From: a virus
Lineage: Duplodnaviria > Heunggongvirae > Uroviricota > Caudoviricetes
Reading direction: 5' to 3' (one strand)
Length of the DNA stretch: 5,383 bases
IMG/VR virus record: IMGVR_UViG_2684622670_000007
Span: 1 to 5,383 of that record
The translations under genes were made by a program, and so were the position numbers. Positions within the stretch are counted from its first letter, which is position 1. The number at the start of each line of letters is the position of its first letter. Positions 1 through 5,383 of this stretch are shown piece after piece. A model generated the notes under the pieces. The model was not told where the DNA came from, did no database searches, and saw only the letters and a list, made by a program, of their open reading frames with translations.

Positions 1-436
1 GTACCGGTTTAACCTCGTCACGGGGCTTTCTGATGGCTGAAAGACGCTTTACAAGTTCATCCATCGCCTGACTCGATGCGTCGATGGTTCCGCTTTGGAT
101 TGGTTCACGCATTTCATCCATGATTTCCAGCACCAGACGGCGGTGATAGTTATCCGCGACCATTCCGGCATATCCCTTCAGGTTTGCGGCACTCGGGCAG
201 TTTTTGCTGGTCATCAGGATTGACGTGAAATGCTCCTCTCCGCACGCCTCGGCAACCATCAGCGCGTCGATTAGGTTTCTGTTTCGCGCCTGCTTCCGGA
301 TAACCTCGAAGGCTTTCCGGTAGAGCGGAATTGAAAACGCTTCCGGCTCAAGCGTTGCCAGAACGTCACTGGCAGTTGGTGTTAATCCACCAATCAGCAG
401 GCCACCGATAACGCTCGCTTCGATATCCTGTTTCAT
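1..436 (-). CDS. Replicative DNA helicase, DnaB family (phage P22 gene 12-type), N-terminal ~145 codons only; gene continues past the left edge
   Basis: Manual minus-strand translation from ATG (revcomp 434-436) gives [17 protein letters not shown]...[18 protein letters not shown]..., matching the conserved DnaB N-terminal domain (E. coli DnaB ...EAEQSVLGGLML...NTPSAANISAYADIV...). The start overlaps the stop of the upstream O-like gene (ATGA), suggesting translational coupling. Not in the ORF track because it is truncated by the window edge. Confidence 0.7.
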
Positions 437-1380
437 GCAATCCCCCTGTCTGCAAACTTTCCTTCCCGTACTCCCGTTAACGAATCTTCCCTCAGCAGGT
501 AATCAAAATCTGCCGTCCAGCCCGTGTCGTTGTCTCCGAAGTAAAACGGCTTGGCCTGATGCACAAACGCCCTGACATACGCTCTGAAACCGTCCACGTT
601 TGGCGTTTTCAGTTGCGGGATAATTTTCTTCAGGCGGCGTTTGCGTTTCTCGTTGACCGCAACAGCGTGTGGAAGTCTGTCACCGACTTCGGTGTTGTAG
701 GCGTTCAGGAAGGATTCGTAGTCGATTCGTTCTGCCTTGCGACGTTCAGGTTTAACCTGCCAATCGCCTCCCCCATTGGGGGGTAGGGGGGTATTATTTA
801 TATTCTTGTTAATACCTTCTTGTTCATGATGTGCGGTTGTTTGTGCGGCTTCATGTGCGCTTTCATGTGCGGCATGTACTCTGAAAGCCGCGCCATTACT
901 GGCTTCGTCATGTGCGGCATCATGTGCGGTTGTTTGTGCGGCTTCATGTGCGGGTGAATCGTCCGTTTTTTGAGCATATTCATGGTAATTTGTGATGGTA
1001 ATCACACGACCTTTTTGCTTCTCTCCATCAATGGTGATCATCTCCTCTTTCACAAAAACCTGAAGCATCCGCTCAACCTGATCACGGCTTGCCGGCTTGC
1101 CATGCCTGTCGCATAACTGAAGACCTAAATCAGCTGCTGTCACAACCAGTTGACCGGGTTGCAGATGCCATTCATGACCTTTGAAATTCGCTTTGTATGG
1201 CTTTCTGGCGGCATTCAGGAGAAGGTTTTCCCACAGGGTGCGAAGATAAACATCTTTCGCCCATGACTGTTTCAGAATGCTCCGGTACAACGGAATGTAA
1301 CCAGTTTTCTGGTTCTCCATCCTGTTGCTCCTGCGCTCGTGTGCGGCGCTGAAATCGTAGATTTTTGCTGTATTGCTCAT
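433..1380 (-). CDS. Replication initiation protein, lambda O / P22 gp18-like (315 aa)
   Basis: N-terminus MSNTAKI... resembles lambda O (MTNTAKI...). Sits downstream of cII and upstream of the helicase, as in lambdoid replication modules. The central low-complexity linker ([17 protein letters not shown]...) is encoded by the iteron arrays. A Shine-Dalgarno-like AGGCAGGT precedes the ATG. Confidence 0.85.
790..953. repeat. Putative phage replication origin inside the O-like gene: two arrays of four 12-bp-spaced iterons (core TGTGCGG) plus a flanking AT-rich segment
   Basis: TGTGCGG cores (one TGTGCGC variant) start at 830, 842, 854, 866 and at 911, 923, 935, 947, giving an exact 12-bp period within each array. 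A 35-bp unit at 825-859 is repeated at 918-952 with 34/35 identity. The AT-rich stretch 790-824 lies immediately downstream in the O reading direction, the same iteron-then-AT-rich order as lambda ori. Confidence 0.6.
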
Positions 1381-2074: not shown

Positions 2075-2299
2075 TTATGCTGCCTGATTCGGTTTTGGAA
2101 ACAGGTGTGGCAAATCGGGGCGAATTTCGTAAGCCTTGATCTGCCCTCCAGTGGCGTTAACGATGGCGGTAACTTTCTCTGGAGAGACCAACCCGCCTTT
2201 CAGCCATTTGTGTACTGCTGGCTGCGTTACACCACACTTGTCGGCAAGGCGCTTTTGGCTACCGACAATTTTCAAGGCTCGTTGAATTACTAAATTCAT
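2075..2299 (-). CDS. cro: Cro-like repressor, HTH_XRE family (74 aa from the preferred start; ORF track extends to 2320)
   Basis: HTH segment GSQKRLADKCGVTQPAVHKW. First gene downstream of predicted PR. The ATG at 2297-2299 is preceded by AGAGGT at 7-nt spacing, whereas the ATG at 2318-2320 has no SD and lies about 6 nt from the predicted transcription start. Confidence 0.75.
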   Translation of the reverse strand: MNLVIQRALKIVGSQKRLADKCGVTQPAVHKWLKGGLVSPEKVTAIVNATGGQIKAYEIRPDLPHLFPKPNQAA

Positions 2300-2332
2300 G
2301 AGCATACCTCTTGTGGTCATTACTTATAACCA

Positions 2333-2361: not shown

Positions 2362-2398
2362 TAACCTTTGTTATTTTACTTTGGATAACCGTAGTTAT
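2336..2398. promoter_or_regulatory. Tripartite right operator: OR1 2336-2349 (ATAACtcaaGTTAT), OR2 2361-2374 (ATAACctttGTTAT), OR3 2385-2398 (ATAACcgtaGTTAT)
   Basis: Three perfect 14-bp palindromes of form ATAAC-N4-GTTAT with 24-25 bp centre-to-centre spacing, between divergent cro and cI. Related sites occur in the OL region. Confidence 0.7.
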
Positions 2399-2401
2399 AG
2401 A
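2373..2401 (+). promoter_or_regulatory. PRM-like promoter for cI: -10 TATAGA (2396-2401), poor -35; the cI mRNA is probably leaderless or nearly so
   Basis: The -10 overlaps OR3 and the predicted start is 1-3 nt before the cI ATG (2411), as for lambda PRM. The weak -35 is consistent with an activator-dependent promoter. Inference only. Confidence 0.4.
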
Positions 2402-2410
2402 TTTGTGGGT

Positions 2411-3118
2411 ATGAAAACATTCGCAGAAAGACTAAATGCAGCCATGAGCTCAGCAGGTGTATCGCAATCACAGCTTGCTGACATGGTTGGAATATCTCAG
2501 CCAGCCATACAGAAGATGTCATCCGGTAAAACAAACGGATCTCGCAAGATGGTTGAATTAGCCAATGCTTTAAAAGTACGCCCTGAATGGCTTAGCTCTG
2601 GTATTGGTGAAATGAGGGATGGTACACATGAAGAACCATCCAATGTCCGTGAATCATCTTTAAAAGCTGTGGTATGGGAAGATATTAAAAGAAACGATGA
2701 CGAGTTTGTCGCGTTGCCTCTTCTTAACGTTTCGCTTTCAGCTGGAAGCGGTAGCTGCGAGCTAGAGGAATCATCAGAGTTCTCTTTGGTTTTCAGAAAG
2801 TACTATCTGAAAAAGATGGGGGTATCTGAAAGATCAGCCAAGCTAGTTAGGGTTGTAGGGCAAAGCATGGAACCAACGCTTCACGACGGAGATGTTGTTG
2901 GTGTTAACACACAAGATACCACAATCAGAGATGGTAAAACCTACGCTATTTGCCAGTCTGATTTGTTACGAGTAAAAACATTAATCGCCACCCCTACATC
3001 GGTGATAATCAGATCAATAAATCGCGAAGAGTACCCAGATGAAGTAATGGATAGAGATGAATTTCATGAAACCGTAAGGATTATTGGCAGAGTATTCTGG
3101 TCGTCTCATAGTTGGTAA
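2411..3118 (+). CDS. cI: CI-like prophage repressor: N-terminal HTH_XRE domain plus C-terminal S24 (LexA-type) autopeptidase domain
   Basis: HTH QSQLADMVGISQPAIQKM; S24 motifs GQSMEP (Ser nucleophile) and RVKTL (Lys); candidate Ala-Gly cleavage site in LSAGSG. The ORF track begins at TTG 2381, but the ATG at 2411 (MKTFAERL...) fits the promoter geometry. Confidence 0.9.
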   Translation: MKTFAERLNAAMSSAGVSQSQLADMVGISQPAIQKMSSGKTNGSRKMVELANALKVRPEWLSSGIGEMRDGTHEEPSNVRESSLKAVVWEDIKRNDDEFVALPLLNVSLSAGSGSCELEESSEFSLVFRKYYLKKMGVSERSAKLVRVVGQSMEPTLHDGDVVGVNTQDTTIRDGKTYAICQSDLLRVKTLIATPTSVIIRSINREEYPDEVMDRDEFHETVRIIGRVFWSSHSW

Positions 3119-3158: not shown

Positions 3159-3455
3159 ATGGAATTTCTGATAGTTTTTGTTGTTGTTTTGGTCATCATT
3201 CTTTTTGTTTTGCTAAGCATTAGCAAAAAGCTATCTCAAACGATTGAACATAGCTCTAATCGCGCAAAAGAAGAAGACCATCTAATTGATATAAAAGAGA
3301 TTCTCTCTGATATAAAAATCACATTAGATGAAATAAAATACACAACAGATCTAATTGAACAGTATAAAATACCAACCCCAAACGAGAGAAAAGCAATAGA
3401 TCAATATCGTATTGACTTAGAAATCGACGAAATGCTAAGCAAAAGAAAAGACTAA
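3159..3455 (+). CDS. Small membrane protein (98 aa): one N-terminal transmembrane helix then a charged, probably coiled-coil domain; sits in the position of lambda rexAB and is probably co-transcribed with cI
   Basis: Strong SD GGAGG (3150-3154) before the ATG. Hydrophobic residues 3-21 (FLIVFVVVLVIILFVLLSI) are followed by a K/E/D-rich region. Markedly AT-rich compared with the flanking phage genes. Lies 41 bp downstream of cI and is followed by an intrinsic terminator. Confidence 0.6.
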   Translation: MEFLIVFVVVLVIILFVLLSISKKLSQTIEHSSNRAKEEDHLIDIKEILSDIKITLDEIKYTTDLIEQYKIPTPNERKAIDQYRIDLEIDEMLSKRKD

Positions 3456-3460
3456 AAACA

Positions 3461-3490
3461 CCCGGCCTCAGCGCCGGGTTTTCTTTTCCT
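3461..3490 (+). terminator. Rho-independent terminator ending the cI operon; possibly bidirectional
   Basis: Stem CCCGGC (3461-3466) / GCCGGG (3473-3478), 6-nt loop, then TTTTCTTTTCC. An A-run upstream (3454-3458) gives a U-run for the opposite strand. Confidence 0.75.
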
Positions 3491-3608: not shown

Positions 3609-3691
3609 AATACCTTTGTTATCCATCACCTATAACTTATTTACCATAAAATATAAACTAAGTTATTGACCACACCTATAACCTAAGTTAT
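3609..3691. promoter_or_regulatory. Left operator region: OL1 3678-3691 (ATAACctaaGTTAT, perfect), OL2 3653-3666 (one mismatch), weaker OL3-like site 3609-3622
   Basis: Same 14-bp ATAAC-N4-GTTAT family as the OR sites. OL1 and OL2 are 25 bp apart and overlap the predicted PL hexamers. Confidence 0.6.
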
Positions 3692-3694
3692 CTT
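3666..3694 (+). promoter_or_regulatory. PL-like promoter: -35 TTGACC (3666-3671), 17-bp spacer, -10 TATCTT (3689-3694)
   Basis: Sigma70-like hexamers overlapping OL2 and OL1, directed toward nutL and the N-like gene. Confidence 0.55.
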
Positions 3695-3740
3695 TAAGCC
3701 ATCAGCAGGACGCAGGAAGCCAAACGGAACAGATTGGCAG

Positions 3741-3779: not shown

Positions 3780-3933
3780 CCAAAGAGAGGTTGGCTTTGG
3801 GATTTGATGAATGTGCAGGTCGATGCACTAACGCTTAGCGGTGAGCACCTGCCTTTGGGGCAGGATGGGTAGCCGCAATCAGGAGATCGACACCTGACAT
3901 CAAATCACCAAAGTCAATCATCGGAGGTATCCA

Positions 3934-4140
3934 GTGAAAGCAAGAGAGATTCGCAAACTCGAACGCGCTCGTAAGCACAAAGAGGCGACAGCAAAACGTA
4001 AAAATATTGACCGTGTTTCAATGGTGGTTTCGCTAGCAGGAGCGAATAGGAAGAAGGTTGAATGTGGTTCGTGCTGCCTGCCAAACGTAGCTCTTTACGC
4101 GGCAGGCTACCGGAAATCAAAACAACTGACGGCGAGGTGA
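3934..4140 (+). CDS. N: N-like transcription antitermination protein (68 aa, GTG start)
   Basis: First gene downstream of PL and nutL. Arginine/lysine-rich N-terminus (MKAREIRKLERARKHKEATAKRK). The C-terminal part resembles N proteins of P22-type phages from recall (unverified). Strong SD GGAGG (3923-3927) 6 nt before the GTG. Confidence 0.7.
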   Translation: MKAREIRKLERARKHKEATAKRKNIDRVSMVVSLAGANRKKVECGSCCLPNVALYAAGYRKSKQLTAR

Positions 4141-4161
4141 CGATCCCCCGCCGTCGAGGAA

Positions 4162-4701
4162 CTAAATTAGCTCATCAGCTTTACCAGCAAAGCGCATATA
4201 ACACTCATAGAACCAGACGTCAGGTATAACAAATTTCTCTTTACCTGACGCGCTGTAAGTCACACCTGAGCGATGGAGAAGGCCTTTTCTCATAAGAGAT
4301 AAAGCGACCGGATCGCCGTGCTTAAGTACGATTTTGTTATTTGCCATAACAGCAAATGCTAAAACCTCTTTTTCCTGAATACTCAGAGAATTGAACAGGC
4401 GCTCAGTCTCCACAATTACTTTAGCCTCATCTCTCTTACTGAGATATTTTTTATATCTGTCTGAAGATGCCAGAAATATAAACTCCATCACCCTGTTCAG
4501 AACATAACTGATACACAAAAGCATTGCGTAATACATCCAGTGATCTGGAAGTATTTCGGGGTTCCTTATATCTACCCACTCTTTAATTGATGCTGGGGTG
4601 ATTATTATCAAGGCAATTAAAATAATAAGCATATGAATTAACTGTTGTAGCGTAAGACCACGCAGGAAGAAACGTAATAGTTCCTGCCACCAGTTACTCA
4701 T
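4162..4701 (-). CDS. Membrane protein (179 aa), putative superinfection exclusion protein B (SieB)-like
   Basis: Convergent with and abutting the N-like gene, the arrangement I recall for lambda sieB and N. N-terminal hydrophobic segment (LIHMLIILIALIIITP) and soluble C-terminal domain. GGAG-type SD before the ATG. Low GC. The assignment rests on position, size and topology only. Confidence 0.5.
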   Translation of the reverse strand: MSNWWQELLRFFLRGLTLQQLIHMLIILIALIIITPASIKEWVDIRNPEILPDHWMYYAMLLCISYVLNRVMEFIFLASSDRYKKYLSKRDEAKVIVETERLFNSLSIQEKEVLAFAVMANNKIVLKHGDPVALSLMRKGLLHRSGVTYSASGKEKFVIPDVWFYECYMRFAGKADELI

Positions 4702-4720
4702 CGGTGAATCTCCATCATTC

Positions 4721-4768
4721 TCTCTGTAGGGGTGAATAGAGTTTATCCGATTTCTCGCTGTAGGGGTA
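4721..4768. repeat. Imperfect direct repeat with shared core CTGTAGGGGT in the divergent intergenic region
   Basis: TTCTCTCTGTAGGGGTGAATAGAG (about 4719-4742) and TTTCTCGCTGTAGGGGTACACGAG (about 4751-4774); the cores are ~35 bp apart, between the divergent SieB-like and 149-aa genes. Confidence 0.45.
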
Positions 4769-4846
4769 CACGAGAACCACCGAGCCTGATGTGGTTAAAA
4801 GACAGGCGCAATCTTTACAACCGCAATCCACTATTTAAGGTGATAT

Positions 4847-5296
4847 ATGGAAGAACAAGCAAACAAGATTCTCGTAGAACTACTGCAAAAAGCCAGTAAT
4901 GGAATAGACGCGGCTGTTTCATTTAGCCAGGCACAGATTCCTGATGTTGTTCATCAGTTGCTGCTATGGAATATGGTTGACAGTCTGATTAAAACATTAA
5001 TAGCCATTCTAACAATCCCACTGGTTTTCTGGTTTATGAAGAAGCAGTGCCAAAGAGTTGAGACAGGTAAAATCGGTGATGAAGGATACTCATGGGAAAG
5101 GGGAAATCCCAAATACAGGCCGACAATGGTTTGGGATAGCAAAGGAGATATTAACCTTCTTATCATGCCATTGGTTGGAGTTTTGACTCTGTGGGGGATT
5201 TTTATTATTGGTGTAGTAACCAATATGACTTGGTTAAAAATTTGGCTGGCCCCAAAACTTTACCTTATCGAATATGCAGCATCATTGGTTAAGTAA
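4847..5296 (+). CDS. Hypothetical membrane protein (149 aa, two predicted transmembrane helices)
   Basis: SD AAGG (4837-4840) 6 nt before the ATG. Hydrophobic segments LIKTLIAILTIPLVFWFM and LLIMPLVGVLTLWGIFIIGVV. Low-GC, divergent from the SieB-like gene. No homologue recognised. Confidence 0.55.
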   Translation: MEEQANKILVELLQKASNGIDAAVSFSQAQIPDVVHQLLLWNMVDSLIKTLIAILTIPLVFWFMKKQCQRVETGKIGDEGYSWERGNPKYRPTMVWDSKGDINLLIMPLVGVLTLWGIFIIGVVTNMTWLKIWLAPKLYLIEYAASLVK

Positions 5297-5383
5297 TTTC
5301 AGGCCGCATAATCGTCCTTTATTTTTGGCATAAACAACAGAATAAACACTGCACTGTGTATTCATTCCAACGAGTGAATACAC

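Follow-up and report, generated by a model that had tools for sequence, protein, structure and literature searches.

A membrane protein gene in the ral slot of a lambdoid prophage is independent of the adjacent sieB and belongs to a widespread, uncharacterised phage family

The open reading frame at 4847–5296 of the window (the whole 5,383-nt stretch of DNA analysed here) encodes a two-helix membrane protein of phrog_3054, a catalogued, uncharacterised family, and is an ordinary phage accessory membrane gene. It lies divergently beside the exclusion gene sieB and is independent of it; the adjacency is an accident of prophage mosaicism. For its function we offer, tentatively, a role as an accessory factor that acts on the Gram-negative envelope in the lytic cycle and is linked to the lysis pathway, either through lysis timing or in association with spanins.

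The target reading frame is a real gene, far beyond chance expectation. It begins with ATG on the plus strand, encodes 149 amino acids and ends with a TAA stop at 5294–5296. Kyte–Doolittle hydropathy in 19-residue windows peaks at residues 46–64 (2.0) and 104–124 (2.4). The 149-aa frame, the two hydrophobic helices and the good ribosome-binding site (RBS) described in the initial annotation were all confirmed, by the sequence, the hydropathy profile and an AlphaFold2 model, and the low GC content reported there is 39.8% (GC3 38.7%), under the window average. Homologues number 516 in a 90%-identity database, every one labelled hypothetical or "phage transmembrane protein"; a profile search retrieved 2,595 cluster representatives (50% identity), of which 1,162 score E ≤ 1e-10. 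Public assemblies contain the identical protein in 5,275 indexed blocks. Among 149-aa relatives (52 pairs, dS ~0.86), dN/dS was 0.14, indicating purifying selection.

The window is the immunity region of a lambdoid prophage, with the early-left (PL) direction on the plus strand, and contains the following features.

433–1380, minus strand: O-type replication gene
Between the O-type gene and cro in window order: cII-type gene
2075–2320, minus strand: cro
2381–3118, plus strand: cI
3159–3455, plus strand: small ORF of 98 aa with a single transmembrane (TM) segment, phrog_18389 (unknown function), GC ~0.31
3460–3490: hairpin and T-run directly after the 98-aa ORF, resembling an intrinsic terminator
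~3627–3696: probable OL/PL operator region
3934–4140, plus strand: N-type antiterminator, the first PL gene (PF25694, E 2.7e-16)
4128–4155, minus strand: GC-rich hairpin terminator with a 10-bp stem, between the convergent N and sieB (terminator scan)
4162–4701, minus strand: sieB, 179 aa, convergent with N (PF14163, E 2.9e-20; phrog_1301, E 2e-93)
4697–4824, plus strand: copy of the sas antisense RNA (alignment with P22, Oslo and SPN9CC)
4837–4842, plus strand: RBS AAGGTG, 4 nt 5′ of the target ATG, conserved in P22, Oslo and SPN9CC
4847–5296, plus strand: target ORF, phrog_3054 membrane protein (ORF list, profile match, dN/dS)

The 98-aa ORF lies directly 3′ of cI, in the position of rexAB in lambda, and is therefore a better candidate than the target gene for a lysogen-expressed exclusion gene or moron. 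Repeated operator-like sites at 3627–3691, TATAAC(C/T)TAAGTTAT and CACCTATAAC, flank a TTGACC hexamer that resembles a −35 element; these sites and the hexamer are probably OL/PL. The hairpin at 4128–4155 is the sieB terminator and, on the opposite strand, possibly a tL1-like barrier for N to overcome. Inside the O-type gene, imperfect 12-nt tandem repeats at 823–965 (consensus TCATGTGCGGCT) form four overlapping copies of a 50-nt unit, encode an odd His/Ala-rich protein repeat and are probably origin iterons. Sixty nucleotides past the target ORF, at 5356–5383, stands an inverted repeat with 12-nt arms and a 4-nt loop (GTGTATTCATTC/GAGTGAATACAC), which is cut by the window end. An Rfam scan of the window returned no match. 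A sigma-70 scan of 3900–5383 returned no promoter, but it overlooked the known sieB promoter too and is therefore uninformative.

Judged from alignment with P22, the target is the first PL accessory gene after a sieB/esc/sas unit, in the slot held by ral in that phage. According to the P22 annotation, sieB has a promoter of its own and is read against PL, and the next PL gene, divergent from it, is ral. The 145-nt spacer between sieB and the target is almost base for base identical to the P22 sieB–ral spacer, and also to the corresponding spacers of the Salmonella phages Oslo and SPN9CC. In P22, sas is a 127-nt antisense RNA (PMC13397905) that switches sieB translation from SieB to Esc (PMC12197685). 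The sas copy in the window, identified by alignment to P22 because sas has no Rfam model, is near-identical to that of P22 and runs antisense to the start codon, 5′ UTR and promoter of sieB. It carries a 16-nt direct repeat, TTCTC(T/G)CTGTAGGGGT, at 4718–4733 and 4752–4767, and ends 22 nt ahead of the target ATG. Identity to P22 takes in the RBS and codons 1–3 (ATGGAAGAA), beyond which ral and the target diverge completely; this places a mosaic joint at the start of the ORF (4843–4855): ral follows it in P22, the membrane protein here. The initial annotation had assigned the gene to the accessory zone of the PL operon; its place can now be given as the exact P22 ral slot, behind a near-invariant segment of sieB promoter and sas.

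The target thus resembles P22 ral in position, in the sas/RBS segment that precedes it, in its opening codons and in being an early PL accessory gene, whereas the Ral proteins of P22 and lambda are soluble 66-aa anti-restriction proteins with no sequence similarity to it. The target has no Pfam match to Ral (PF11058), and Ral is a separate upstream gene in several contexts. Many prophages carry both genes, arranged as N-(sieB)-ral-target, which rules the target out as a substitute for Ral. On the other side of the spacer, sieB has an internal in-frame methionine, Met24 (codon 4630–4632, minus strand), whose position matches the P22 esc start (codon 25), and the prophage probably makes its own Esc self-protection product. 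With this start retained, the sieB/esc/sas unit is self-contained and needs no extra partner. The divergent sieB–target pair is a case of P22-type module shuffling, in which N, sieB/esc and sas are followed by an interchangeable first accessory gene.

The neighbour described in the initial annotation as SieB-like is a true SieB by both of its profile matches, upstream of the target on the opposite strand. The same annotation had raised the idea that the divergent genes might be partners, to be checked by their co-occurrence across prophages, and here it failed. Among 5,426 complete E. coli genomes, 244 carry the target gene, 130 of them at full length; a query made of sieB plus the target was matched in 1,137, and the number of places covering at least 80% of that pair query was zero. 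Three E. coli prophages that we inspected have N, then the target 8–58 nt further on, and no sieB; phage HF4s likewise has N followed by the target without sieB. For 77 usable close relatives in IMG/VR (75–100% identity), N lies directly upstream in 49 and a divergent SieB in seven; two show the order N-sieB-ral-target, and ral or other PL genes intervene in the remaining 19. The identical protein, in ten contexts, follows N directly in four, N, SieB and Ral in two, Ral in one, a Ral fragment only in one and other genes in two. More broadly, SieB was absent within 5–6 kb of the gene at 37 loci in species-representative genomes and at 46 further diverse viral loci.

That the target works with SieB, as a partner or as a second part of the exclusion system, is consequently very improbable. 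In its favour is the divergent adjacency seen here, in Oslo and SPN9CC, and in the seven close relatives just mentioned, yet co-occurrence does not extend beyond that sub-lineage: N is directly upstream in most relatives, and the identical protein occurs with N directly upstream and without sieB. In P22 this slot, preceded by the same sas segment, belongs to ral, and sieB already has its own Esc start and sas regulator. The family occurs in virulent phages as well, and in the three that we inspected no sieB is annotated near it. SieB resembles the target in being a two-TM protein, physically adjacent here, but it is unrelated in sequence, lies on the opposite strand under its own promoter and is expressed in the lysogen. 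As a SieB homologue the target was rejected by the absence of a Pfam match (PF14163) and an hhalign probability of 0.4%.

The only family matched by the target is phrog_3054 ("unknown function"), at E 2.8e-64, with residues 1–149 aligned to profile positions 1–137 of 137; all 94 of 94 diverse relatives match the same PHROG. UniProt labels its members "Phage transmembrane protein", examples being HK639 gp44, HF4s_0037 and Oslo gp47, which are homologous to the target over their full length and share its length, termini and two-helix layout. We found no paper that mentions phrog_3054. Scans of the target against Pfam, NCBIfam and PADLOC gave no match, a PDB sequence profile search gave nothing meaningful, and a Pfam scan of the 94 relatives gave only scattered membrane-family noise. 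Comparison of the fold with solved and viral predicted structures returned only generic long helices. The protein can still be called unassigned, as it was in the initial annotation, remote homology having led no further than this orphan family.

Two alignments show an N-terminal signature, F..AQIPDV..QLL.W, and a C-terminal signature, WLKIW.APK.YL.EYA.SL.K, bracketing the two hydrophobic helices. Across the family the N-terminal 41 and C-terminal 22 residues are near-invariant, and the membrane hairpin and loop are hypervariable; the EY of the C-terminal signature is followed by exactly six more residues in 110 of 129 representatives. The loop ranges from ~10 to 75 aa and falls into several sequence classes, that of the target's subfamily having the motif YSW.RG.PKY.PT..W. 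The parts of the target are as follows.

4847–4969, plus strand: residues 1–41, acidic helical N-terminal segment, with near-invariant F26, P32, V34, Q37, L38, L39 and W41
4970–5038, plus strand: residues 42–64, TM helix 1, variable in sequence (hydropathy, AlphaFold2, alignment)
5039–5152, plus strand: residues 65–102, loop, rich in K/R directly behind TM1 and acidic ahead of TM2
5153–5221, plus strand: residues 103–125, TM helix 2, the least constrained part (dN/dS 0.59)
5222–5293, plus strand: residues 126–149, amphipathic C-terminal helices with the C-terminal signature (dN/dS 0.05)

Calculated by part, dN/dS was 0.07 for the N-terminus (dS ~1.15), 0.05 for the C-terminus, 0.20 for the loop and 0.59 for TM2. 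Values of 0.05–0.07 at the termini against 0.59 in TM2, at dS ~1, indicate that conservation acts on the protein and is not the outcome of DNA homogenisation. AlphaFold2, run with the 94-sequence alignment, gave a model with pLDDT 88, which replaced an earlier run with 22 close sequences (pLDDT 67). The model has a helix at 2–68 that runs from the N-terminus through TM1 without a break (pLDDT ~90), a poorly ordered loop, TM2 at 106–125 and two short C-terminal helices. Two membrane passes place both conserved ends on the same face of the membrane, and we read these ends, in the model, as a small invariant head at the membrane surface, with the hairpin as a generic anchor. The N-terminal tail has a K+R of 2.4 against a D+E of ~6, and a K/R cluster follows directly after TM1; this charge distribution suggests a periplasmic head and a cytoplasmic loop, a charge rule that is ambiguous in short-loop variants.

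Variation in the middle of the gene takes several forms. In Salmonella phage SPN9CC (3221–3586 of its locus, L003) and in E. coli hits H112–H116, the gene is a 121-aa short-loop variant whose termini are near-identical to those of the 149-aa form, in DNA as well as protein, and whose middle is unrelated, which points to recombination inside the gene. The Ralstonia jumbo phage RsoM2USA (MG752970; L181, 2169–3903) has three family paralogues in tandem; the conserved termini are common to all three, and the membrane hairpins and loop lengths differ. In the N4-like Salmonella phage FSL SP-058 (L006, 3741–4004), the family member overlaps by 4 nt an upstream 87-aa ORF with an N-terminal signal or anchor sequence, and the two may form a coupled pair.

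The family spans temperate and virulent phages, the latter including N4-like Salmonella and Vibrio phages, phi92-like coliphages and the Ralstonia jumbo phage. Its genes were found in PL early operons, in late lysis cassettes and in early/middle clusters of virulent phages. All of these are lytic-cycle transcription units, so an immunity role expressed from the prophage in the lysogen is unlikely. The neighbourhood survey found no conserved partner gene; only Rz, N and Kil recur. Ral is directly upstream of the target in several contexts; elsewhere the neighbours are Lar, a DNA methylase or an Acb2/Tad1-type protein, and anti-RecBCD, Gam and Kil genes occur downstream.

About one-quarter of the diverse family members abut spanin genes. 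Of the 37 loci in species-representative genomes, 10 have an Rz/Rz1 spanin pair immediately upstream, mostly overlapping the family gene or within ~10 nt of it, with holins and endolysins further upstream; at the further viral loci, a spanin gene is abutted in 8 of 46. The sampled loci are related and not phylogenetically independent. Two relatives fill the slot between endolysin and i-spanin; in the window, by contrast, the target follows N/sieB. The first, in a lambdoid cassette (IMGVR_UViG_2874434233_000003, L148), stands in the order Q, holin/antiholin, lysozyme, family gene, Rz-like spanin. The other, in a P2-like late operon (IMGVR_UViG_2924479673_000010, L162), stands in the order X, two membrane ORFs, a 140-aa ORF, family gene, lysB-like spanin, a 145-aa ORF, R, S, where X, the spanin, R and S alone were identified by similarity. 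There the family gene stands where P2 has lysA, whose annotation reads non-essential and "affects timing of lysis". All identified hosts of the family are diderm, the same phyletic range as that of spanins.

It is this repeated linkage to spanin genes, the lysA slot of the P2-like operon and the diderm hosts that lead us to guess at the lysis pathway. From the operon structure, transcription would start at PL, pass N and read antisense through sieB, so that the protein would be made on infection or induction and not in a repressed lysogen. It would act as a stand-alone inner-membrane protein, independently of SieB, in which the variable two-helix hairpin anchors the near-invariant head (residues 1–41 and 126–149) and is nothing but an anchor; what the head engages would be conserved in Proteobacteria, or else the head would self-assemble. 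The topology, the target of the head and any role in lysis are the parts of this scheme that we infer.

Our confidence in a lysis-linked role stays low for several reasons. The window and its close relatives have it as an early PL gene that lies far from the lysis cassette; in virulent phages its neighbours are early/middle genes and not those for lysis. Both the post-N and the post-Rz site are known accessory-gene hot spots, and insertion preference may thus explain the adjacency to spanins; moreover, the loci counted are not independent. Lambda-type lysis requires only holin, endolysin and spanin. The three jumbo phage paralogues with different middles fit an arms race better. Finally, neither in sequence nor in fold does the target resemble any holin, antiholin, spanin, releasin or P2 LysA.

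Specific identities among lysis proteins were rejected one by one. P2 LysA resembles the two slot-filling relatives in being a small multi-TM protein between endolysin and an Rz-like spanin, but it has four hydrophobic stretches (by eye, from the translation), lacks the conserved termini and aligned with an hhalign probability of 0.1%. The target matches no holin family in Pfam or PHROG, and cassettes that contain the family gene have a recognised holin as well. Like a holin it has TM helices, yet in place of a highly charged tail its C-terminus forms a hydrophobic amphipathic helix that ends in ASLVK (3 K and 1 E in 24 residues). Neither the target nor the 94 relatives match the Mu releasin family (DUF2730) in Pfam. 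The CSP1 antiholin set and actinophage LysZ offer precedents without being related. A stronger version of the lysis reading, that phrog_3054 is an unrecognised and widespread component of the lysis pathway, whose probably periplasmic invariant head works with spanins or regulates them or lysis timing, and which moved into early operons in some phages, we consider doubtful.

The early placement that weakens a role in lysis would suit superinfection exclusion during lytic growth, by which an early inner-membrane protein would block entry of a secondary phage genome, as T4 Imm does, with the loop or hairpin setting specificity. Like the target, T4 Imm and P22 SieA are small phage inner-membrane proteins, and Imm is an early lytic product of a virulent phage. 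The family gene comes early, right after N, in lambdoid phages of E. coli and Salmonella, and early/middle in N4-like and phi92-like phages; its middle is hypervariable, with several loop classes, the jumbo phage RsoM2USA has diversified it into three tandem paralogues, and its hosts are exclusively diderm. Set against this, the quarter of diverse members that are expressed with late lysis genes would come too late to exclude much, the strongest constraint falls on the invariant head and not on the variable middle, and TM2, at dN/dS 0.59, looks relaxed and not positively selected. There is no similarity to P22 SieA (hhalign probability 0.2%) or SieB and no PADLOC match; P22 gp17, which allows growth on Fels-2 lysogens, is unrelated, and the Gnarl accessory genes (40–90 aa, O-antigen) encode different proteins. 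We regard such an exclusion role as unlikely.

An invariant head implies a conserved target, which could belong to the host: membrane-anchored, the head might neutralise a conserved membrane-associated function such as an abortive-infection pore, an envelope stress sensor or a division protein, in counter-defence or host takeover. The gene does occupy accessory hot spots among anti-defence genes, with Ral, Lar, methylase, Acb2/Tad1-type, anti-RecBCD, Gam and Kil neighbours. This is guilt by association only, however, and the neighbourhood holds no conserved partner or target gene. The main text of the Silas accessory-gene screen mentions no such protein, and we know of no membrane-anchored anti-defence protein of this kind. 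Counter-defence, too, seems to us improbable, and an accessory role on the envelope with a link to lysis is the reading that we tentatively put forward.

For the window, these results remove a tempting link and place the target gene outside the SieB exclusion system. For the family, they describe a very common phage protein, with ~2,600 clusters at 50% identity and without domain annotation, in which, unusually, invariant termini enclose a membrane hairpin that varies freely. That its genes recur next to spanin genes, once in the lysA slot of P2, gives a concrete and testable lysis hypothesis to a family that had been blank.
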